DNA of 12,639 bases from Naegleria gruberi (lineage: Eukaryota), in NCBI GenBank assembly GCA_000004985.1, contig GG739000.1. One strand, written 5' to 3'. The notes under the pieces are model-generated. The model was not told where the DNA came from. It searched no databases and saw nothing but the letters and a program-made list of their open reading frames with translations. Positions 761-12,207 of the stretch are shown here, piece after piece. The position numbers were made by a program, and so were the translations under genes. Position 1 is the stretch's first letter. Each line of letters opens with the position of its first letter.

Positions 761-1303
761 TCATTCAATATAGGACTTGTTATTCACAGCAGCTGCAGTT
801 GGTGGACATGTCTTACTTCTCTGCACTGTACTAATTTCAGTGCGTGAAGAATGAACACCAACCAAACGTCCACACGACTTTAATTGAGGTAAAGCCTTTG
901 GAGAGGGCATGTAATCGGATGCTAAATAACCAGGAATGTAGGGAAGAGGTGATATTGACTTTTGTCTTGCAGCATCATGATTATTCTTCAATAGCATTGG
1001 AAAGCAAATCTTGTTATCAGCAAATGGATCACCATCATTATACAATTGAGAGTAGAGAATATTTTGATGGGGATGATAGTTTGAAAATTGCTTCGAGTCT
1101 TGTTTGAGACTATCATTGAGTGGATCACGAGGTGAATTTATAAAATCCTTACTAGTGAGTTTGGAAGTCTTTTTAACCTTCTTTTGTTTTTTACCTTCAA
1201 TGAGGCTTTGTTTCATCATGTTATGAAGTTTTTCTAATTGTTCCTCAGTGAGTGATTGTTTAACCGATGCTTTGGCATGAGTGAGAGCTGTATTACTCCC
1301 CAT
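761..1303 (-). CDS. hypothetical Lys-rich, low-complexity protein (180-aa ORF, ATG 1303-1301, TGA 763-761); possible extra 5' coding exon 1384..1553 joined by a 73-nt GT-AG intron (1311..1383)
   Basis: This is a long, stop-free reading frame on the minus strand in AT-rich DNA. Composition is K/E/S-rich (KKQKKVKKTSK), which looks like a nuclear or basic protein. The overlapping + strand ORF 844-1107 is the antisense shadow. On the minus strand, upstream ORF 1359-1553 joins in frame if GTGTAAG...CAAAATAG (1383->1311) is spliced out. The minus-strand AATAAA is at about 545-550. Confidence 0.45.
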   Translation of the reverse strand: MGSNTALTHAKASVKQSLTEEQLEKLHNMMKQSLIEGKKQKKVKKTSKLTSKDFINSPRDPLNDSLKQDSKQFSNYHPHQNILYSQLYNDGDPFADNKICFPMLLKNNHDAARQKSISPLPYIPGYLASDYMPSPKALPQLKSCGRLVGVHSSRTEISTVQRSKTCPPTAAAVNNKSYIE

Positions 1304-1627
1304 CTTTGATCTATTTTGAAAAAGAGAGTCAAATAATTGATAGTATTACTATTAAGTTTCAACAAGAATAAGTGGTCTTACACCTTAATAAACTTGCGGT
1401 GTAGTAGTTTGTTGTTGTTTTTAAAAGAAGAATTTTTATCAAATGATGACGACGAGTGGTTCTTTCTGGTGAGAAGTGACTATGTGAATGTCCTTGTTGA
1501 GCAGTTTTTTTTATGATGTTACGGTTTGGTTTTCGAACACTTGTGTTTTTCATTCTCCAAATAAGGTCAATTAAGGGTCACTTTTTATATTTGATTGTAC
1601 AGAGACCTTTTTGGTTTTTTTATCGCG

Positions 1628-3954
1628 NNNNNNNNNNNNNNNNNNNNNNNNNNNNNNNNNNNNNNNNNNNNNNNNNNNNNNNNNNNNNNNNNNNNNNNNN
1701 NNNNNNNNNNNNNNNNNNNNNNNNNNNNNNNNNNNNNNNNNNNNNNNNNNNNNNNNNNNNNNNNNNNNNNNNNNNNNNNNNNNNNNNNNNNNNNNNNNNN
1801 NNNNNNNNNNNNNNNNNNNNNNNNNNNNNNNNNNNNNNNNNNNNNNNNNNNNNNNNNNNNNNNNNNNNNNNNNNNNNNNNNNNNNNNNNNNNNNNNNNNN
1901 NNNNNNNNNNNNNNNNNNNNNNNNNNNNNNNNNNNNNNNNNNNNNNNNNNNNNNNNNNNNNNNNNNNNNNNNNNNNNNNNNNNNNNNNNNNNNNNNNNNN
2001 NNNNNNNNNNNNNNNNNNNNNNNNNNNNNNNNNNNNNNNNNNNNNNNNNNNNNNNNNNNNNNNNNNNNNNNNNNNNNNNNNNNNNNNNNNNNNNNNNNNN
2101 NNNNNNNNNNNNNNNNNNNNNNNNNNNNNNNNNNNNNNNNNNNNNNNNNNNNNNNNNNNNNNNNNNNNNNNNNNNNNNNNNNNNNNNNNNNNNNNNNNNN
2201 NNNNNNNNNNNNNNNNNNNNNNNNNNNNNNNNNNNNNNNNNNNNNNNNNNNNNNNNNNNNNNNNNNNNNNNNNNNNNNNNNNNNNNNNNNNNNNNNNNNN
2301 NNNNNNNNNNNNNNNNNNNNNNNNNNNNNNNNNNNNNNNNNNNNNNNNNNNNNNNNNNNNNNNNNNNNNNNNNNNNNNNNNNNNNNNNNNNNNNNNNNNN
2401 NNNNNNNNNNNNNNNNNNNNNNNNNNNNNNNNNNNNNNNNNNNNNNNNNNNNNNNNNNNNNNNNNNNNNNNNNNNNNNNNNNNNNNNNNNNNNNNNNNNN
2501 NNNNNNNNNNNNNNNNNNNNNNNNNNNNNNNNNNNNNNNNNNNNNNNNNNNNNNNNNNNNNNNNNNNNNNNNNNNNNNNNNNNNNNNNNNNNNNNNNNNN
2601 NNNNNNNNNNNNNNNNNNNNNNNNNNNNNNNNNNNNNNNNNNNNNNNNNNNNNNNNNNNNNNNNNNNNNNNNNNNNNNNNNNNNNNNNNNNNNNNNNNNN
2701 NNNNNNNNNNNNNNNNNNNNNNNNNNNNNNNNNNNNNNNNNNNNNNNNNNNNNNNNNNNNNNNNNNNNNNNNNNNNNNNNNNNNNNNNNNNNNNNNNNNN
2801 NNNNNNNNNNNNNNNNNNNNNNNNNNNNNNNNNNNNNNNNNNNNNNNNNNNNNNNNNNNNNNNNNNNNNNNNNNNNNNNNNNNNNNNNNNNNNNNNNNNN
2901 NNNNNNNNNNNNNNNNNNNNNNNNNNNNNNNNNNNNNNNNNNNNNNNNNNNNNNNNNNNNNNNNNNNNNNNNNNNNNNNNNNNNNNNNNNNNNNNNNNNN
3001 NNNNNNNNNNNNNNNNNNNNNNNNNNNNNNNNNNNNNNNNNNNNNNNNNNNNNNNNNNNNNNNNNNNNNNNNNNNNNNNNNNNNNNNNNNNNNNNNNNNN
3101 NNNNNNNNNNNNNNNNNNNNNNNNNNNNNNNNNNNNNNNNNNNNNNNNNNNNNNNNNNNNNNNNNNNNNNNNNNNNNNNNNNNNNNNNNNNNNNNNNNNN
3201 NNNNNNNNNNNNNNNNNNNNNNNNNNNNNNNNNNNNNNNNNNNNNNNNNNNNNNNNNNNNNNNNNNNNNNNNNNNNNNNNNNNNNNNNNNNNNNNNNNNN
3301 NNNNNNNNNNNNNNNNNNNNNNNNNNNNNNNNNNNNNNNNNNNNNNNNNNNNNNNNNNNNNNNNNNNNNNNNNNNNNNNNNNNNNNNNNNNNNNNNNNNN
3401 NNNNNNNNNNNNNNNNNNNNNNNNNNNNNNNNNNNNNNNNNNNNNNNNNNNNNNNNNNNNNNNNNNNNNNNNNNNNNNNNNNNNNNNNNNNNNNNNNNNN
3501 NNNNNNNNNNNNNNNNNNNNNNNNNNNNNNNNNNNNNNNNNNNNNNNNNNNNNNNNNNNNNNNNNNNNNNNNNNNNNNNNNNNNNNNNNNNNNNNNNNNN
3601 NNNNNNNNNNNNNNNNNNNNNNNNNNNNNNNNNNNNNNNNNNNNNNNNNNNNNNNNNNNNNNNNNNNNNNNNNNNNNNNNNNNNNNNNNNNNNNNNNNNN
3701 NNNNNNNNNNNNNNNNNNNNNNNNNNNNNNNNNNNNNNNNNNNNNNNNNNNNNNNNNNNNNNNNNNNNNNNNNNNNNNNNNNNNNNNNNNNNNNNNNNNN
3801 NNNNNNNNNNNNNNNNNNNNNNNNNNNNNNNNNNNNNNNNNNNNNNNNNNNNNNNNNNNNNNNNNNNNNNNNNNNNNNNNNNNNNNNNNNNNNNNNNNNN
3901 NNNNNNNNNNNNNNNNNNNNNNNNNNNNNNNNNNNNNNNNNNNNNNNNNNNNNN
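1628..3954. other. assembly gap (2327 N)
   Basis: Uninterrupted N run. All six-frame 'ORFs' crossing it (1513-4002, 1595-3970, 1611-3977, 1620-3959) are artefacts of translating N. Confidence 0.99.
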
Positions 3955-4285
3955 TTCATTCTTCGGTTAATTGCTGACTTGAAACCAGTCTCGTCATTAT
4001 GATCATCACAATAACACTCATCATTAGCATTATTCTTTTAAGAGATGGTTATTACTTTCATTGTTAATGAGGAAGGAACGGAGGAGGACATTTTTTAATA
4101 GATGTGATGAAAATTAATACGGTACTACTGTAGTAGGTACATTCCACTTTTGATTACAAAGATTGTTGTTTGTTATGATGAAAATAAGTAGAGCATGATG
4201 TAATGATGATAGTTTTTTTAAAATTGAATTTTTTTTGTTTTGAATTTTAAACGGCAAGACAAATGAAATTTTGGCGGCCCTTTTA

Positions 4286-6175
4286 TTATGGATCCATTTG
4301 AATGAGATTATGCTGTTGTTGATCTTCCTCTTGTTGATGAGATGCAACATGTTGACCTGGAAATGCATTTTGCAATTCTTCTTCATCCTCACTTAAAAAA
4401 TCATAGGATAGTTGCTCTCTGATTTCTCTTGCCTGTGAGGAAGAATTCTTTTTCATGTGATACCACAAGGCCAATAGAACAGCAACCAGGATAGTGGTTG
4501 ATGATGCAATCATTCCAGTTAATGGAAGAATATATCCATAGGATTCCTCTTCCTCAGCTGCTGTTGAATTGGTGCACACATGATTCTTGAATGAAATTCT
4601 GAAACCTTCAGGACAAAATGGAACTGCCTTCATTATGAACCTTTCTGTTTGATCTACAAAGTAGAAGGACAATCCATCAGTTGCAAAACGAACAGAGTGG
4701 AGTAACGCCGAATCGCTTTTAAAAACAAACTCAATCAAAGCATTTTCATCTCCAAGTTTCAAGCGATACACTCTTCCAATTGATGAGGTTATTTTTCGAA
4801 TCAAATACATACAAGTCACCATCATTGGTGTAGTGAACATCTTTAGGTTGAAGAGTGTTTTTGAAGCGTCACTTTCTGTATTGTATCCAGACACTCCAGG
4901 AATACCATAGATAGTAGAAATGATGCCGTCCTTTGAAACTGACATGATCTTGTGTATCTGCAATAACCATTTCGCCTTCAACACTGACAAAGAAGGAGGA
5001 AACTTCTTGAATTTTGGCCTCTGTTGCTGGAAGTCCATCACCCAAGCCACCTGCAACCTTGGTAAGAGTATTTCCTTTTACTTTCCATACGAAACGAGTT
5101 GGTTCGGTAAAGTAAATTTCATCTTCTGTTGGAATAAGAAGTAGTTGTAGCATCAGAACCAACAATTCTCACCAATTTACCATCAACAACCTTACTCACA
5201 AACATTTCATGGGCAACATGTATTTCATCCTTACTGTTAATCAAAACAGATGGTGGCATTTTCACATCGATAAACCTTTCCCAAGTTCCATCTGTTTTAA
5301 GCTTGAAAAGGAATGATCCAAATTTTAAGGCAATAATGAAATCACCATTTGAAAGTACATCAAAGGATGAAATAGAGGAGGTTTTTTCTTGACGAACTAG
5401 TTCCGTTTGACCAGTTTCGGCTTTGACAATAGTCAAAGAATCTAGAAGGCATAGATAAATATCACCATTATCCATTATTTTCATTTTACCTGGCAAAAAT
5501 ATTCTTGATAGATGCTCATATTTGGAATTTACCTTAAGGGTTTCCAAATTCAAAATTTTTAAACTATTGCCCTCAATAAAGAAAATCTGACGTCTAGACC
5601 GTGGGAGGTGAGAAGGATTGACAAATATTTTTATAAAAAATTTAGAAGTCACTCAAAAAACAAAAATTTGTTAAAGTCGAGCCGAAGGTTTATTGGACCA
5701 AGAGTGAGACAGTGTGTTCAAAGTATCAATTACCACTTGTTCTTCTAGAAACAAGTACTTCTGGGTAATTGTTGTTTGTTGTTTTTTTTTGTTGAATATT
5801 TAACGGTCAGAACAGACAACTTTCAGCGGTTTTTGGTTGGCGCGAAATTACCGTGATGTAACATTTTTTAGCTCACCTCCCTCGGTCTACTGACGTCAAT
5901 AGTAATCTCTTGACATTTCCAGTAGCTTGATCAATAACGAAAATCTCCTCTTCTTCTATTAAGACTTTGGTATCATTCCAAGCAAATCTTAGAGACATCC
6001 ATACTGGTTCTCCAATCACCGAATTTGTACCTTCTTCATTATCGGGAGAGATTGTTCCTCCAGCAATTCTCATGGTCCTCCATCTTAATGGAACTTTACT
6101 AACTCTCTCAATATTTGCAACTTGGCTTGTTGATGATGCCTTAATCATTATTTTGCTCCGATGAAATAACAACAT
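4286..6175 (-). CDS. multi-exon gene for a single-pass (type-I-like) membrane protein with a beta-propeller-like repeat ectodomain, a TM helix and an acidic cytoplasmic tail. Proposed exons: 5877..6175, 5181..5593, about 4968..5125, about 4286..4930 (last junction uncertain)
   Basis: ATG at 6175-6173 sits immediately after an in-frame TGA. Exon 1 ends ...CGA GGG AG|GTGAGC (donor at 5876-5875). Acceptor TCTAG|ACGTCAG at 5594 gives a 283-nt intron and an in-frame join (..SVDRGRRQIFF..). The second intron is 55 nt (5126..5180, GTAAAT...CCAACAG) and joins ..VSKVVD|EDEIYFTEP.. in frame. A third frame change near 4931-4967 could be a 37-nt GT-AG element or a real frameshift. The protein has repeated strand-rich blocks (DGKLVRIV, NGDFIIALKFGS, IYFTEP, DGIISTIYGIPG). 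A hydrophobic 23-mer (ILPLTGMIASSTTILVAVLLALW) is followed by KKNSSS..DFLSEDEEEL..QQEEDQQQ. Stop is TAATAA at 4288-4283, overlapping an AATAAA on the minus strand. No N-terminal signal peptide was found in exon 1. Confidence 0.55.
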
Positions 6176-6302
6176 TCATCAACAAAGCAATAGTAATGTA
6201 TAACACGATAGAGGTCCAAATTTTAATGGCTCCAACCCTCTCGATGGAGAATGAGCTCCTAGTAGAAGATCCTCCCTTATTGCAATTGTTTGTTGTCGTG
6301 TG

Positions 6303-6371
6303 CCCGCTAAACACTTACTGTCAAAGCGTGCTGGTACTTTGACGATTTTGCGTCAAGCTATTTTCGTCAAA
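6303..6371. repeat. left motif cluster: 9-mer CCCGCTAAA (6303-6311), then TTGACGATTTT (6339-6349), GCGTCAA (6350-6356) and TTTTCGTCAAA (6361-6371)
   Basis: TTGACGATTTT is identical to 8908-8918 in direct orientation. TTTTCGTCAAA is the exact reverse complement of TTTGACGAAAA at 8995-9005. CCCGCTAAA is the exact reverse complement of TTTAGCGGG at 9032-9040. Confidence 0.6.
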
Positions 6372-6610
6372 CAAGCGAAAAGTTGTCTTAGCAGGAGGGA
6401 ACTTGGAAATTTTTCCAATTTCAAATAACAAATAAATTTCCAAGTCAATAAATTTCAATTTATTAAAAGTATTGATATGCATAATAATGCACAGGAATAT
6501 ATTTCTCTTCATCAGGGAGTTTGACAACAACACATGGGAGCATTTCAAATGCTTCACTTCTACTAATCTCCCTTGTCTTATTGGTGGTGTTGGAAATTAA
6601 GGTAATCTCA

Positions 6611-7615
6611 TTAAAATCTTTTGAAAGATGCCACTTTGAAAACTTCGTTCGTTTTGATATCCTTGATACAATCTAATTCCTTTCTTACAACGTAGTGACC
6701 AACTATACATTCAGAGGCAATAAGAGGTTCATTTAAATCCATTAAATCACATAATTGGCACATATCAAAGTACATGATTGAATATCGAGCAGAATTTGAA
6801 CAAACGTAAGTCTTTGAGAGTGTGAAATTGAGCCCTTCTCCAATAAAAGCAGAATTTACACCAAGAGGGCCGTACATTCTACAAGAATTGACTAACTCAG
6901 TACAAATATGAAAGTTTGGTGTTGCTTTCTTTTCTCCAACCACTTTCTGATAATCAATTAACACTTGAAACAATTCAATCTCAATGTCTCCTAATTTGGA
7001 TAACTGAAATGAGTCTGTCAGCTTATCAATTATAGAGGCAAATCTATGAATTATTTCAACCTTTGATTCTATTTCCTTAAATCCTTCGATATGCGTAAAC
7101 AGCTCTAAATAATAATGACAGATCATGTAAATTTCAATTGCCTTTAGACTGTTCATAATCTGGCCATTTGTGGTCTTTCTAGGATGCTTGTGAAGGAATG
7201 ATGGATACTTTTGTTTCAGAAACAATGTCAAATCTTTCCCAGTATTGAACAGGGATCATTTTCATCATTTCTTGGAAAACTCCTTCATATAATACATGCA
7301 TTGAATCATAGCAACAAATATCTGATGGTGATGGATTCAATTCTTGATCCAAAATTGGTGAAATTGGATGCACAATAGAGTCTCCCTATGCAAAGACATC
7401 TTGATACTCATCTAAACAGCTCACCATTTGATTAATCATTTCATTCATATTTCTGACTGCGTGTTTATATCTAGCCAATTCTTTCTTAATTCTTTCATTC
7501 TCATCAACTAAATCATTATAGTGTTTCAAAAATGCAGAATTTGCAAATGATTCCGGAACTTCATTTGAATCATCATTGCTTGAAGAAGCCTTCTTGTTGG
7601 AAGGTTCATTGTAAG
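6611..7615 (-). pseudogene. transposase-derived ORF, C-terminal-region-like, recalling plant En/Spm-CACTA TNP2 (Transposase_21 + DUF4218) or fungal KDZ transposases. The reading frame is disrupted by an in-frame TAG (7388-7386) and a +1 shift near 7180-7230
   Basis: Three collinear minus-strand ORF pieces: 7425-7615, 7182-7385 (same frame, separated only by TAG) and 6611-7231 (shifted frame). Motifs, recalled from memory and not searched: ...DICCYDSMHVLYEGVFQEMM... resembles the D-x-MH-[IV]-EKN-V block. About 150 aa downstream, ...ATPNFHICTELVNSCRMYGPLGVNSAFIGEGLNFT...NSARYSIMYFD... resembles PK[ML]H-x-LVHL...GP...WMYPFER...ARPEGSIAEGY of DUF4218. There is no DDE-region counterpart upstream; that space is taken by a + strand ORF. 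This fits a truncated, decayed copy. Confidence 0.38.
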
Positions 7616-7722
7616 AAGAAGCATTCTTGGTAGAAGACTTTGGTCATGATGATAAAACCATTGTGCTCACCCATAAAGAGAGAGCAAAGATTTGTGAATT
7701 AGGTGAGAAAACCTCTCAAATA

Positions 7723-8070
7723 ATGCATGTTTGCTCTACCTACTTTGAAAAGTCAATTACAAAGCTTAACCAAGATGAAAGAAAGCTATTGTTTAAGATA
7801 ATATTTGATGCAATGGGTTGGAAAATAAGCAAACACAAGAACAAACTCAGTAAATACAGAGGTGTCTTTAGAACAATTGCAAGCAACCTTAAGAAAAAGA
7901 AGGGTGCAAAACAAAATGAATCAGTAAAGAAGAAGAAGACAGAACTTGAGGAGACCATCTCAAAAAAGAGAAAAGAAAGAGAGGAAAACAATGATTCTGG
8001 ATCATCCTCTTGTGAGGAAGAAACCATTGAAGAGGATTCCACTGATGATATGAGTGATGATGAATGTTGA
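7723..8070 (+). CDS. small Lys/Glu-rich protein (115 aa from the first ATG; frame open from 7615) with a basic KKKK/KRK core and an acidic Ser/Asp C-terminal tail (..SSSCEEETIEEDSTDDMSDDEC*)
   Basis: The 147-codon stop-free frame 7627-8070 has strongly biased charged composition. The opposite-strand ORF 7740-8153 is a poly-F/L/S antisense shadow. AATAAA at 8109-8114 lies 39 nt after the TGA (8068-8070). First ATG is at 7723. A GGTGAG at 7702-7707 could mark an upstream splice donor, so the 5' end is uncertain. Confidence 0.5.
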   Translation: MHVCSTYFEKSITKLNQDERKLLFKIIFDAMGWKISKHKNKLSKYRGVFRTIASNLKKKKGAKQNESVKKKKTELEETISKKRKEREENNDSGSSSCEEETIEEDSTDDMSDDEC

Positions 8071-8108
8071 TTGTAAAATGTTGGGTTATTAAATGGGAAT
8101 TTATTTTT

Positions 8109-8114
8109 AATAAA
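8109..8114 (+). other. polyadenylation signal AATAAA for the 7723-8070 gene
   Basis: Canonical hexamer 39 nt downstream of the stop, inside an A/T-rich tract. Confidence 0.4.
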
Positions 8115-8278
8115 AAAATGTCTACACATCAACTCCCTCATCATATCATACAAAACTGTCGGTTAGTACTACAACATTATTTTTACTACAATTTAAAATC
8201 ATCAGTGATCACTCATTAAATATTGAATAGTATCATTAATTTGTTAATACGATAATTGTTGGCGGAGTTTTATTGTTT

Positions 8279-8380
8279 ATTGGTTTGTTGTATTTAAATT
8301 TCTTAATTTCTTAATTTTTTAATTATTGTTGTTAGTTGGATTTATAAAGATTTTATTCTTCGAAATTGGTTTGTTGTATT
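8279..8380. repeat. 16-bp direct repeat ATTGGTTTGTTGTATT (8279-8294 and 8365-8380) flanking a tandem TCTTAATT x2 (8299-8314)
   Basis: Exact matches read from the sequence; AT-rich intergenic DNA downstream of the 7723-8070 gene. Confidence 0.6.
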
Positions 8381-8747
8381 ATTTTCATATTATATGATTT
8401 TACCTGCTACGGATCATCAAAATTATTCATCACAAGAAATTAGGTAATTTGTTATAATTCAATTTGTGCTAAACAGCACGATTTATATGCAAGCAACAGA
8501 TTTTGAACAGAAAACAATGTAAGTAATTTTGATTTATTATCATTAATTTTGAATGTAACTGAAGAGGTGAGTGATATTTCATCAGTTGGAGTGAGGATGA
8601 GGAGTGTAGATATTTTTTTCGGTTGGAAATTTGGAATGGAAGTGGATCTAATAATAGATGAGTTTGGAACTTGGAAATTTTACAAGATTTTGGAGTAAAT
8701 AATTGCTGGAATTTAGTCAATAATTGACAATAATTATTATGAATTTT

Positions 8748-9040
8748 TTGACGTAATTATTGATGTTTTTTCATCAATATTTGATACAAAACATTATCAA
8801 TTTATTATCAATTTTTGACGTCAAAAATTGATAATAAATCATTAAGAATTGACGATAATTCTTGACGTCAATTGCGCGTTAATTTGGAATTTTTCTCCCA
8901 ACACTTGTTGACGATTTTATTATGCTTTAAGCATCAATTTTTAACATTTTTCAATAAACTTTATTTCATAATTTTGCAATCTGATACGTTAAAATTTGAC
9001 GAAAAAATTGTTAAAATTATCATCAAAATAATTTAGCGGG
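8748..9040. repeat. right motif cluster: at least 6 TTGACG cores (8748, 8815, 8849, 8863, 8908, 8996), a TGACGTCA palindrome (8864-8871), an 8-bp inverted repeat AATTGACG/CGTCAATT (8847-8854/8866-8873) and terminal 9-mer TTTAGCGGG (9032-9040)
   Basis: Direct count in the sequence. TTGACG is expected about 3 times in the whole readable window on both strands at this base composition. It occurs about 10 times, and all copies fall in these two ~300-bp regions. Confidence 0.75.
8800..8839. repeat. 40-bp perfect palindrome ATTTATTATCAATTTTTGACGTCAAAAATTGATAATAAAT centred on GACGTC
   Basis: Checked base by base: 8800-8819 is the exact reverse complement of 8820-8839. The palindrome breaks at 8799/8840. 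Confidence 0.95.
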
Positions 9041-9222
9041 GTGTTGAGAAGAAATTTTTTTTTTTAAAATAATATGGTTGGTTATCTTCCGAGAAACTGG
9101 GAATTCTTTTTCGGTTTGGATTAAGTAATATACCCTAACGAACACAATCACATCCAATTTTTAACTATAAGGCAACGCTGTTTTTGGTCTGTATATGAAG
9201 AATTTTTAATAATGAATGTGAA

Positions 9223-9293
9223 GCGTCGATGGTTTAGTGGTAGAATACGGCGTTGCCATCGCCGTGACCCGGGTTCAATTCCCGGTCGACGCA
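9223..9293 (+). tRNA. tRNA-Gly (anticodon GCC), 71 nt
   Basis: GCGTCGA acceptor 5' arm pairs with TCGACGC at 9286-9292, with discriminator A at 9293. The D-arm is GTTT/AGTGGTA/GAAT, matching the A box TTTAGTGGTAG. The anticodon stem CGGCG/CGCCG carries loop TTGCCAT, giving GCC. There is a 4-nt variable loop. The T-arm CCGGG-TTCAATT-CCCGG matches the B box GGTTCAATTCC. No CCA is encoded. The anticodon arm ACGTTGCCATCG matches yeast tRNA-Gly(GCC) as I recall it. Confidence 0.93.
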
Positions 9294-9302
9294 TGAAGTA
9301 TC

Positions 9303-9307
9303 TTTTT
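9303..9307 (+). terminator. RNA polymerase III terminator (T5 run) 10 nt after the tRNA 3' end
   Basis: TTTTT at 9303-9307 on the coding strand, directly downstream of the tRNA. Confidence 0.55.
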
Positions 9308-9572
9308 ATTCCTTCGTTGTTGAAGTAATTTTAATTATTTTTCTACCACTCATGGAAGACATGTATTTGTACAATAATCTGTATTTTCTCTCAATTTAGA
9401 ACAGTAATCATTGAGATATTCACCTCCTTCCAAATAGCATTTTTTAACCTAAAAAATATGCTAAAAAAAGATGCCGACTAACTTTTTAACAACAACAATA
9501 CAGATTGATCTCCTGGAAACATGCCGACAACATGATTCTATCACCAATGGATTTAACGATTCCCAATGAGAT

Positions 9573-10818
9573 NNNNNNNNNNNNNNNNNNNNNNNNNNNN
9601 NNNNNNNNNNNNNNNNNNNNNNNNNNNNNNNNNNNNNNNNNNNNNNNNNNNNNNNNNNNNNNNNNNNNNNNNNNNNNNNNNNNNNNNNNNNNNNNNNNNN
9701 NNNNNNNNNNNNNNNNNNNNNNNNNNNNNNNNNNNNNNNNNNNNNNNNNNNNNNNNNNNNNNNNNNNNNNNNNNNNNNNNNNNNNNNNNNNNNNNNNNNN
9801 NNNNNNNNNNNNNNNNNNNNNNNNNNNNNNNNNNNNNNNNNNNNNNNNNNNNNNNNNNNNNNNNNNNNNNNNNNNNNNNNNNNNNNNNNNNNNNNNNNNN
9901 NNNNNNNNNNNNNNNNNNNNNNNNNNNNNNNNNNNNNNNNNNNNNNNNNNNNNNNNNNNNNNNNNNNNNNNNNNNNNNNNNNNNNNNNNNNNNNNNNNNN
10001 NNNNNNNNNNNNNNNNNNNNNNNNNNNNNNNNNNNNNNNNNNNNNNNNNNNNNNNNNNNNNNNNNNNNNNNNNNNNNNNNNNNNNNNNNNNNNNNNNNNN
10101 NNNNNNNNNNNNNNNNNNNNNNNNNNNNNNNNNNNNNNNNNNNNNNNNNNNNNNNNNNNNNNNNNNNNNNNNNNNNNNNNNNNNNNNNNNNNNNNNNNNN
10201 NNNNNNNNNNNNNNNNNNNNNNNNNNNNNNNNNNNNNNNNNNNNNNNNNNNNNNNNNNNNNNNNNNNNNNNNNNNNNNNNNNNNNNNNNNNNNNNNNNNN
10301 NNNNNNNNNNNNNNNNNNNNNNNNNNNNNNNNNNNNNNNNNNNNNNNNNNNNNNNNNNNNNNNNNNNNNNNNNNNNNNNNNNNNNNNNNNNNNNNNNNNN
10401 NNNNNNNNNNNNNNNNNNNNNNNNNNNNNNNNNNNNNNNNNNNNNNNNNNNNNNNNNNNNNNNNNNNNNNNNNNNNNNNNNNNNNNNNNNNNNNNNNNNN
10501 NNNNNNNNNNNNNNNNNNNNNNNNNNNNNNNNNNNNNNNNNNNNNNNNNNNNNNNNNNNNNNNNNNNNNNNNNNNNNNNNNNNNNNNNNNNNNNNNNNNN
10601 NNNNNNNNNNNNNNNNNNNNNNNNNNNNNNNNNNNNNNNNNNNNNNNNNNNNNNNNNNNNNNNNNNNNNNNNNNNNNNNNNNNNNNNNNNNNNNNNNNNN
10701 NNNNNNNNNNNNNNNNNNNNNNNNNNNNNNNNNNNNNNNNNNNNNNNNNNNNNNNNNNNNNNNNNNNNNNNNNNNNNNNNNNNNNNNNNNNNNNNNNNNN
10801 NNNNNNNNNNNNNNNNNN
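9573..10818. other. assembly gap (1246 N)
   Basis: N run. ORFs 9486-10841, 9505-10848 and 9566-10912, and the 9553-10818 part of ORF 9553-11898, are artefacts. Confidence 0.99.
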
Positions 10819-12207
10819 ATCGAGAAGTGGGCTATCTTCATCCATTAGATTGATTGAATGTGGAGAGTCTGGTGATGTAGGCGAAATGCTGAATGTTGGT
10901 TGTGTTGGTTGAGAAAAACATGGGTTGGTAAATCTTCCCATTCCTGGATAATTTTCCATGACTTCCATTCTCCTTACCATTTCTTCTTCTTCCATTTTCA
11001 TAACATATCTACTATATTCTTCTTCTTCTTCCAGTCTTCTCATATTTATCATTCTTCTCCTTCCAAAACCTCCACCACCTCTAAAACGACGACCTACAGG
11101 ATTATAGTCTCTTTCCATCATTCTCAAAGATTGGAAATCAGGATGGTCATCCATTGCATCATATTGCTGATCAGATTGATTCATTGTTTTGAATGAATTG
11201 GTAGCATTGGAAAACTTGCCAATAAATCCCTTTCCTTCATTTTCCTTCAGGTAGACATGCAAAGGTTGTTTGAGATTTGACTCTATTCCCCTCACATTGT
11301 TATAAAAAGCCTTGAGAGCATTTCTCTTGGATTCGTCAAGCCTCTTTGTCTGAAAGTTAAAGTTGAAATTCAAAGCCTTCTCCTCTCCTTTATCGTCACA
11401 ATGATTCTTCTTTTTGATAGTTCTTCTGACAAAGTGACCCTTTGGTGGTGCAACATTTCTTTCAATCTTACGAGGTGAAATATGATATGGATCAGTTGAT
11501 GATGATGATGACTCCTTTCCAAACTCTATGAATGCAAATGAATCATCTTGTTCTTCTCTAGCTAATGATAATGCTGATTCGAATGATTGTCCCATAGAGA
11601 AGAATGGAGATTCATACGATGAGGCTGTTTGCTGCTGCTCCTCCAACTCCTCTTTAGTGTAGAGTTTCGTATCAACTTTGAATAGGCTCTCATCTTCACA
11701 ATAGAGAGAAGAATAAGGCTTGTTCGATTGTTCTGCAGAAGGGCCTCCACCACCACCATACGAACGAATCATTGAGTTGTTGTTGTATCTTAGAGGTTTT
11801 ACCATAGTAGTATACAGAGAGAAAGGTGTGCTTGTTGTTGAGGTGTTTTTTTCGAGTTGTAGTTCTTTGGCTTTTCTGTGTTTGAGGCTGTTTTTCAATG
11901 TAGTGAATCAAGGCTGACTCGCTAAGAGTATTGTTATCGGAGGAAGAAACAAGCCTAATTTTCAATTCTCTCTCTTTGATGAGAGGCAATTTCAATTTGA
12001 AAAAGGTAGTGACAATTTGTGGAGGCTCCACACTGAGAATATCACATGGTCATAGATCTGTGTGATTTCGAATAATATTAATCATCAAATAATTACTAAA
12101 TTTTCACAAAGCCAATAATATAGTCAACATCAAAACCTAATAATCCACATGTGATCTTCCTCTCTGCCCTTTTCATAGGATTCCAACATGTCAACCCAAA
12201 TGTTCAT
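10819..12207 (-). CDS. 5' portion of a gene for a low-complexity RGG-box / poly-Glu / Ser-rich protein; 3' part lost in the gap. Proposed exons: 12137..12207 (ATG 12207-12205), 11919..12032, and <=11887 running into the gap; alternative start ATG at 11805-11803
   Basis: A stop-free frame runs 10819-11887, about 356 codons. Content includes ..RRFRGGGGFGRRR.., LEEEEEYSRYVMKMEEEEMV, SSSSS and a QPTQPTFSISPTSPDSP tail running into the gap. Upstream frame pieces join in frame if a 31-nt element (11888..11918, GTCAGC...AAAAACAG) and a 104-nt intron (12033..12136, GTTTTG...TATTCTCAG) are removed. ATG 12207 has an in-frame TGA 21 nt upstream. The exon structure is inferred, not verified. Confidence 0.5.

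Follow-up and report, generated by a model that had tools for sequence, protein, structure and literature searches.

A probable internally deleted two-gene transposon with CACTA/Mirage/Chapaev affinities in Naegleria gruberi

Is the DNA at positions 6303-9040 of a stretch from the amoeba Naegleria gruberi one mobile element, and if so, where are its ends and to which group does it belong? The stretch, here called the window, comprises 12,639 nucleotides of contig GG739000.1 (GenBank assembly GCA_000004985.1). It is AT-rich and eukaryotic in sequence, with a GC content of ~26-39% in the unmasked parts. A first-pass annotation made from the letters of the window had proposed a decayed DNA transposon with a short terminal inverted repeat (TIR) and subterminal repeats. 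This proposal is supported by a left edge shared with a second copy, by the existence of a multi-copy family and by TTGACG clusters in a copy from N. lovaniensis. With high probability the 2738 bp at 6303-9040 are a single insertion, a non-autonomous and internally deleted copy of a two-gene Naegleria cut-and-paste transposon, and its placement as a divergent lineage of the CACTA/Mirage/Chapaev (CMC) superfamily is given the same high probability. The element is an ordinary kind of transposon; its host organism is poorly catalogued.

The related loci are referred to as L001 (N. lovaniensis PYSW02000024.1), L002 and L003 (contigs of one ENA metagenome assembly, ERZ929261, L003 being 4562 bp long) and the further loci L004 and L005 (the latter ENA ERZ27230167 k119_69125). 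The N. gruberi predicted protein EFC41272 is P0001, and a cluster look-up of P0001 led to protein P0087 on L003.

The ends of the element and their flanks are as follows (TSD, target-site duplication; ORF, open reading frame).

6300-6302, unstranded: putative left copy of the TSD, GTG, read directly and identical to 9041-9043
6303-6311, plus strand: left TIR, CCCGCTAAA, on the transposase-gene side, an exact inverted match to 9032-9040 with its edge shared with L003
9032-9040, minus strand: right TIR, TTTAGCGGG, on the ORF2 side, the exact reverse complement of the left terminus
9041-9043, unstranded: putative right copy of the TSD, GTG, read directly

Direct reading of the letters gave the 9-bp inverted repeat and its GTG flanks as first annotated. 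The 9-mer CCCGCTAAA and its reverse complement are the sole two matches window-wide, even when one mismatch is allowed. The first-pass annotation had named a 9-mer match and flanks consistent with chance as one outcome that would refute the proposal. As evidence, the 9-bp inverted repeat by itself is weak: an inverted repeat of this length between the two outer 142-bp segments was obtained in ~7% of shuffles. When an identical 3-bp flank is included the figure for the same segments is 0.17%.

The left end is found in two copies. L003 and window positions 6293-7197 are 98.9% identical over 907 bp, and the alignment is near-perfect inward of CCCGCTAAA and collapses directly outside it, between a G and CCCGCTAAA, with no similarity farther out. 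Because the similarity to L003 ends exactly there, with unrelated DNA outside, the edge of the repeated sequence is the proposed left TIR. The outer flank preceding CCCGC is ...TTGTCGTGTG in the window and ...TTGTTGAGGG in L003, giving the 3-bp flanks GTG and GGG, and the L003 flank leads, 24 bp from the terminus, to a different ATG-initiated ORF.

Just inside both ends lie clusters of the motif TTGACG. The clusters, the two different 11-mers that they share and their distances from the termini had all been noted in the first pass and were all found again. Window-wide there are 14 TTGACG sites against 2.15 expected, a number that none of 200 shuffles reached, and 11 of the 14 belong to the two clusters, three at 6339-6370 and eight at 8748-9001. 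TTGACG therefore forms subterminal repeat arrays no more than a few hundred bp from either end, as in canonical CACTA elements.

6339-6370: left TTGACG cluster, from a motif search, with sites at 6339 (+), 6351 (-) and 6365 (-), all three kept in L003
8071-9031, unstranded: right subterminal region, AT-rich and non-coding (GC ~26%), with the eight TTGACG sites at 8748-9001 and no ORF that has a database relative
8800-8839, unstranded: perfect 40-bp palindrome, ATTTATTATCAATTTTTGAC-GTCAAAAATTGATAATAAAT, with the centre TGACGTCA, arms 100% complementary and 0 nt between them, consisting of two abutting inverted TTGACG sites and their flanks

The 11-mer TTGACGATTTT is found at 6339 and 8908 in direct orientation, and the 11-mer TTTGACGAAAA in inverted orientation, at 8995 and, as the reverse complement, at 6361. 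The distance from cluster to terminus is 27 bp on the left and 26 bp on the right. An exact 16-nt direct repeat, GGAACTTGGAAATTTT, is also situated inside both subterminal regions (6398-6413 and 8666-8681). The palindrome, together with a further TTGACGTCAA at 8862-8871, suggests that the subterminal motif is perhaps bound as a dimer; its centre, the CRE-like octamer TGACGTCA, resembles a classic bZIP/CRE-type site. A second candidate for a subterminal motif, TTGGAAATTT, which is the core of this 16-nt repeat, has four exact sites, all within the element, and was rejected; its count is not significant window-wide and it is absent from the N. lovaniensis ends. One TTGACG located 41 bp outside the L003 terminus lies within an ORF (ELDDL) and is regarded as chance. 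A scan for bacterial promoters and terminators was uninformative.

Between the arrays the element contains the remains of two genes.

6463-7366, minus strand: remnant of a DDE transposase, approximately the C-terminal 300 codons, from ...PISPILDQ to the stop after ...YAYQYF, with 98% identity to EFC41272 (P0001)
7367-7643, minus strand: inverted 277-bp fragment of ORF2, matching the plus strand of L002 422-682 at 92%, with a premature stop where L002 has Leu
7644-8070, plus strand: C-terminal remnant of ORF2 (the Lys/Glu-rich ORF 7723-8070), aligning with the C-terminal ends of the ORF2 proteins of N. lovaniensis (506 aa) and L004 (445 aa)

The first-pass annotation had drawn a frame-damaged transposase-like ORF at 6611-7615. 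A frame-damaged transposase is indeed present, but its homology is limited to 6463-7366, and 7367-7643 is the inverted piece of ORF2. The small Lys/Glu-rich ORF also exists as drawn, and its description is completed by its identity as the end of ORF2. The transposase remnant has frameshifts near 7222 and near 6625. It keeps the motifs D-x-M-H, KA-x-E, NFH and GPL..SAF-x-x-E, that is the part from D-x-MH onward, and has lost the C(2)C motif along with the two catalytic D residues. The full-length relative P0005 has 690 aa as compared with the ~300 damaged codons in the window, the remnant being the C-terminal third.

A common layout, with the transposase gene head to head with an ORF2 of ~450-500 aa, is shared by L001, L002, L004 and L005, and from this the structure of the window copy can be read. 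A blastn comparison with L002 puts the transposase/ORF2 breakpoint at 7366/7367. Window positions 7644-7748 correspond to L002 423-319 on the minus strand (99%), and ORF2 is contiguous across the rearranged stretch in L002. Compared with L002, ~2.3 kb (the equivalent of L002 683-2961) is gone; the deleted parts are the N-terminus of ORF2, the 135-bp inter-start (shared promoter) region and the N-terminal two-thirds of the transposase. Each gene has a TTGACG array on its 3' side, and the 135 bp that separate the two divergent starts contain none. Because of the deletion, the 277-bp inversion, the two frameshifts and the stop codon, the window copy is unable to encode either protein. Both ends are kept while the interior is deleted relative to a full-length relative, and from the interior deletion and inversion the copy is therefore a non-autonomous derivative. 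A deletion combined with a small inversion is the kind of scar that results from aberrant repair.

The ORF2 protein, conserved in four loci, gave no detectable similarity in Pfam or PDB, TnpA-type families included. For the transposase, the first-pass annotation had suspected a damaged CACTA-type protein (PF02992/PF13960) in an element that is not canonical. Both parts of this agree with the profile homology to Transposase_21, DUF4218 and DUF1258 and with ends that read CCCGC. The Pfam search that was to identify the ORF had a divided outcome: a scan of the window ORFs and their Naegleria homologues gave no significant direct match, and the link to Transposase_21 appeared at the level of family profiles. 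A family hidden Markov model (HMM), a profile of P0004 and P0003, was searched against 1.84 billion representatives and found 82 proteins. Among 40 long hits, PF02992 Transposase_21 (tnp2) was matched by 31, DUF1258 by 29 and DUF4218 by six, several of them above the gathering thresholds, for example Thrips palmi XP_034231506 (DUF1258 53.8 bits, Transposase_21 39.3 bits). Alignment of the heterolobosean family with the Pfam-positive animal proteins in hhalign gave a probability of 100% and an E value of 5e-53 over 475 columns. The motifs brought together in this alignment are DGV (first D), D-PAR (second D), C-x2-C, D-x-MH, KA-x-E, N-x-H...H and GPLW..S-F-x-F-E, which are those given for the CACTA/Mirage/Chapaev/Transib (CMCT) clade (PMC12730594). 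The transposase of the family is thus homologous to Transposase_21 (tnp2)-type proteins, as expected of a CMC element. Every family member that extends over the region has the C-x2-C motif, as FCHxC; the motif is invariant in a 40-sequence alignment, and in the window copy the region is deleted. H-x3-H is found in the distant members P0084 and P0016, and the proteins of N. gruberi and N. lovaniensis have H-x3-E/D.

Other searches with these proteins gave little. When the N-terminal half of the transposase was the query of a word-indexed homologue search, one N. gruberi protein was recovered besides the query itself. Against PDB sequences the profiles of the transposase and of ORF2 gave nothing significant, only weak zinc-ribbon/RING-like matches (E > 0.1) in the Cys-rich N-terminal region. 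P0003 was modelled with AlphaFold2 from an alignment of four sequences; at a mean predicted local distance difference test score of 45.6 the model was too poor for a fold search.

The family has several copies in N. gruberi, and besides EFC41272 the minus-strand ORF of the window copy has weaker relatives there and in N. lovaniensis. In N. gruberi NEG-M, related copies are found on at least five scaffolds: EFC35875 (690 aa, full length), EFC49423+EFC49422, EFC41272, EFC35460 and EFC49894. Three N. gruberi models cluster with EFC41272 at >=90%, and EFC35875 is an apparently intact 690-aa transposase. The window copy is a further copy or an allele, since its translation differs from each N. gruberi model. 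The near-identical copies and the apparently intact N. gruberi transposase gene suggest recent activity.

In the N. lovaniensis locus, TTGACG clusters at 4660-4792 and 11311-11343 bracket ORF2 and the transposase. Just outside the clusters are a CCCGC at 4544, the sole one on the plus strand in 4000-12000, and a GCGGG at 11409-11413, so that the putative ends, with their outer flanks, read TGA-CCCGC...GCGGG-GAG. As L001 has both, the family would seem to be characterised by CCCGC...GCGGG termini together with TTGACG arrays. The transposase of this copy is split into two gene models of 275 aa and 407 aa (L001 9893-10001). About 120 residues around the first catalytic D are missing compared with P0004 and P0005, and the N. 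lovaniensis copy is consequently also defective.

Several points weigh against the interpretation given here. The Naegleria proteins are below the Pfam thresholds, the best being P0005 with 16.2 bits for Transposase_21 against a cut-off of 28.6 bits. Because the direct matches are sub-threshold, CMC membership rests on transitive homology at the profile level. The termini, CCCGCTAAA...TTTAGCGGG, depart from the 5'-CA...TG-3' that is typical of the clade (PMC12730594, PMC4079192) and that the CMCT clade has 'in most cases' (PMC12730594). L003 comes from a short-read metagenome assembly and its break could be a graph artefact, though it would still mark a repeat boundary. At the putative ends of the N. 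lovaniensis copy just 5 nt (CCCGC) are shared, and the match between the flanks there is 2 bp (GA) instead of 3. Finally, the first-pass annotation had expected other copies with the same termini and different flanks. L003 supplies the left end with another flank, but a second right-end copy or an empty site was not retrieved, and position 9040 and the 3-bp TSD rest on single-copy statistics.

The TSD is probably 3 bp (GTG) and less probably 2 bp long. Both lengths fall in the 2-5-bp range of CMC elements, the observations being GTG/GTG in the window and, tentatively, GA/GA in N. lovaniensis, that is one or two copies. That the ends are as proposed but the TSD of the family is 2 bp, as in Mirage, is unlikely without being negligible; the duplication in the window would then be TG and the third base a coincidence. 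Mirage has a 2-bp TSD and DUF1258 is linked to Mirage. The putative L001 ends share GA only, and for the relatives of the transposase the matches to DUF1258, a Pfam family centred on Caenorhabditis, are as strong as those to Transposase_21. Against this, the match in the window is clean over 3 bp, and the L001 termini were placed tentatively by means of a 5-nt motif. The L001 copy is moreover old (protein 51% identical, catalytic region internally deleted), so its flanks may have mutated.

It is improbable that the remnant is genuine but has its right boundary elsewhere. The 9-mer at 9032 and the GTG flanks would then be coincidental, and the stretch a truncated fragment instead of a complete TIR-to-TIR copy. 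Such fragments exist, as L002 and L003 are both truncated, and the second copy confirms the left end only. Chance 9-bp inverted matches are also common in AT-rich DNA, with 112 pairs in 3.2 kb, besides the shuffling result for the outer segments given above. The right 9-mer is, however, G+C-rich. Given the left end, its chance expectation over the 1152-bp interval from the ORF2 stop to the tRNA gene is 0.0008-0.0016, and ~1e-5 together with a matching GTG. The position of the 9-mer outside the last TTGACG mirrors that on the left to within 1 bp, and the TTGACG cluster stops short of it. These observations argue for a right boundary at 9040. Exact-pattern scans gave 0 matches for the 22-nt right end in JGI metagenomes, viral contigs and GTDB genomes, and 0 for the 19-nt left end in viral contigs. 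A search for contigs with the right end, made with a chimera of every ORF in the right half, likewise gave 0 matches, these ORFs having no protein-level database relatives, and a search for related loci in metagenomes gave 0 confirmed loci.

The least probable explanation is that the stretch is not mobile DNA but belongs to a dispersed host gene family (a domesticated transposase and its partner with a TTGACG-rich promoter or enhancer) spread by segmental duplication. In its favour, TGACGTCA resembles a bZIP/CRE-type site, neither a transposition event nor an empty site has come to light, and some N. gruberi models such as EFC35875 are intact. Against it, the similarity breaks off sharply at an inverted-repeat terminus whose flanks are unrelated, and the internal points of truncation, deletion or inversion differ from copy to copy. 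The window copy is disabled and yet has perfect ends, and the TTGACG arrays are placed away from the divergent inter-start region.

For a non-autonomous CMC-type transposon, the following mechanism can be proposed, partly by analogy with En/Spm, in which TnpD cuts and TnpA binds the subterminal repeats. A full element would encode a ~690-aa DDE transposase and an ORF2 protein of 450-500 aa head to head, between TTGACG arrays and short 5'-CCCGC...GCGGG-3' termini. For the window copy, the transposase would be supplied in trans by an intact copy, for example EFC35875. The TTGACG arrays and 9-bp ends would be recognised by the transposase with the help of ORF2 and/or its own N-terminal Cys-rich module. 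Excision would be followed by reinsertion through staggered cuts with a stagger of 2-3 nt, producing a duplication that in this case would be GTG (3 bp) or alternatively 2 bp long. The predicted pre-insertion (empty) site is ...TTGTTGTC-GTG-TTGAGAAG..., i.e. TTGTTTGTTGTCGTGTTGAGAAGAAATTT. The insertion in the window is probably recent and could still be mobilised in trans, since the ends, the arrays and the flanking duplication are intact and the identity to another copy is ~99%.

The insertion lies between two host genes, one of which is a tRNA gene.

9223-9293: tRNA-Gly(GCC), 71 nt, with no encoded CCA (ARAGORN; Rfam 66.9 bits)

The tRNA gene is 182 bp from the right repeat, and an ATG-initiated ORF with its 5' side at 6175 is 128 bp from the left repeat. 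Both distances are as first annotated, with ARAGORN and Rfam placing the tRNA. If the element is removed, the reconstructed intergenic region from the tRNA-Gly to the neighbouring ATG is 313 bp. Inserted between the 5' end of a gene and tRNA-Gly, the element may affect the expression of either. The first-pass annotation had regarded the tRNA gene as a landing zone. This was rejected: there is no tRNA gene in the four other loci scanned (L001-L004), and tRNA proximity is for that reason not a property of the family. The two characterised insertions are both just upstream of an ATG-initiated ORF, at 128 bp in the window (6175-6302) and at 24 bp in L003 (2040-2063). This hints at a preference for 5' intergenic DNA, with n=2 and perhaps reflecting only a compact genome.

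Outside the element the window contains two runs of N, at 1628-3954 (2327 bases) and 9573-10818 (1246 bases), which are assembly gaps or masked sequence. The six-frame 'ORFs' at 1513-4002 and 9486-11898 are spurious, as they are created by these runs.

The related loci have further features of their own. In both L002 (3134/3135) and L003 (1132/1133) the match to the element stops at the same internal position, window 7196/7197, and beyond it the contigs run into genes unrelated to the element, one with a BTB domain and one adh_short. A rearrangement or large insertion in the source organism may have split one element, or the break is one in the assembly graph. At its other side, in L002 1-318 (window 7749 onward), the ORF2 frame ends abruptly (...CSTYFDG and a stop) and the similarity to the window is lost after CTACTTTGA. 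The L002 copy is for this reason regarded as truncated too, at a different internal point. In L001 a gene of 894 aa with PF00589 Phage_integrase (tyrosine recombinase) occupies 937-3621, ~0.9 kb from the ORF2-side end of the element, and may represent a Crypton- or DIRS-like mobile element beside the N. lovaniensis element. The more distant L005 has the same head-to-head layout and precomputed DUF1258 and Transposase_21 matches. Its outer parts (1-1059 and 4817-5104) have no TTGACG arrays; a few inverted ATTCTGATA-containing repeats are present on each side (not significant), and 1-230 consists of tandem repeats of ~95 bp. Different lineages may have different subterminal motifs.

The analysis gives a Naegleria transposon family a defined structure, with ends, a subterminal motif and two genes. 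Its members are now annotated merely as 'predicted protein' and would be missed by Pfam-based pipelines. The range of the CMC superfamily is extended to Heterolobosea, and the CAC...GTG terminus is not universal there. Recent activity would make the system of TTGACG arrays and ORF2 experimentally tractable. No paper describing a CMC-type element from Naegleria was found in the literature, and the family may already be catalogued in Repbase or Dfam. It is possible, though somewhat doubtful, that the family is an undescribed, Heterolobosea-specific CMC/CMCT lineage, Pfam-invisible, with CCCGC...GCGGG termini, CRE-like TTGACG(TCA) arrays and a novel ORF2, and recently active in N. gruberi. If so, tests of it as an endogenous mobile element, or as a tool for Naegleria genetics, would be possible.

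Among known systems, the closest comparison is with CACTA/En-Spm (PF02992 Transposase_21 'tnp2' with PF13960 DUF4218). Homology of the DDE transposase extends over the catalytic core, and in the Naegleria family the second D is followed by the C(2)C motif (motif definition in PMC12730594). Common to both are also a short TSD (3 bp in the window), subterminal repeat arrays inside both ends, a second element-encoded protein and internally deleted, non-autonomous derivatives. Unlike CACTA/En-Spm, the Naegleria termini are CCCGC...GCGGG and not CACTA...TAGTG, and the TIR is just 9 bp. The ORF2 protein is without detectable Pfam or PDB similarity, the Naegleria transposases are below the Pfam thresholds, and in the proteins of N. 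gruberi and N. lovaniensis Glu or Asp stands in place of the second His of H(3-4)H. The host, a heterolobosean amoeba, is different as well. Mirage of Caenorhabditis elegans and the DUF1258 proteins are approached from the side of the transposase, as its nearest relatives outside Naegleria match DUF1258 at or above the gathering score. As to the flanks, the match is 3 bp in the window and 2 bp in L001, compared with the 2-bp TSD of Mirage. Chapaev, which has a 3-4-bp TSD and invariable 5'-CAC...GTG-3' termini (PMC4079192), shares the CMC superfamily and a compatible TSD length with the Naegleria element. The CCCGC/GCGGG termini of the window set the element apart from Chapaev as described, a distinction made by termini and not by phylogeny.

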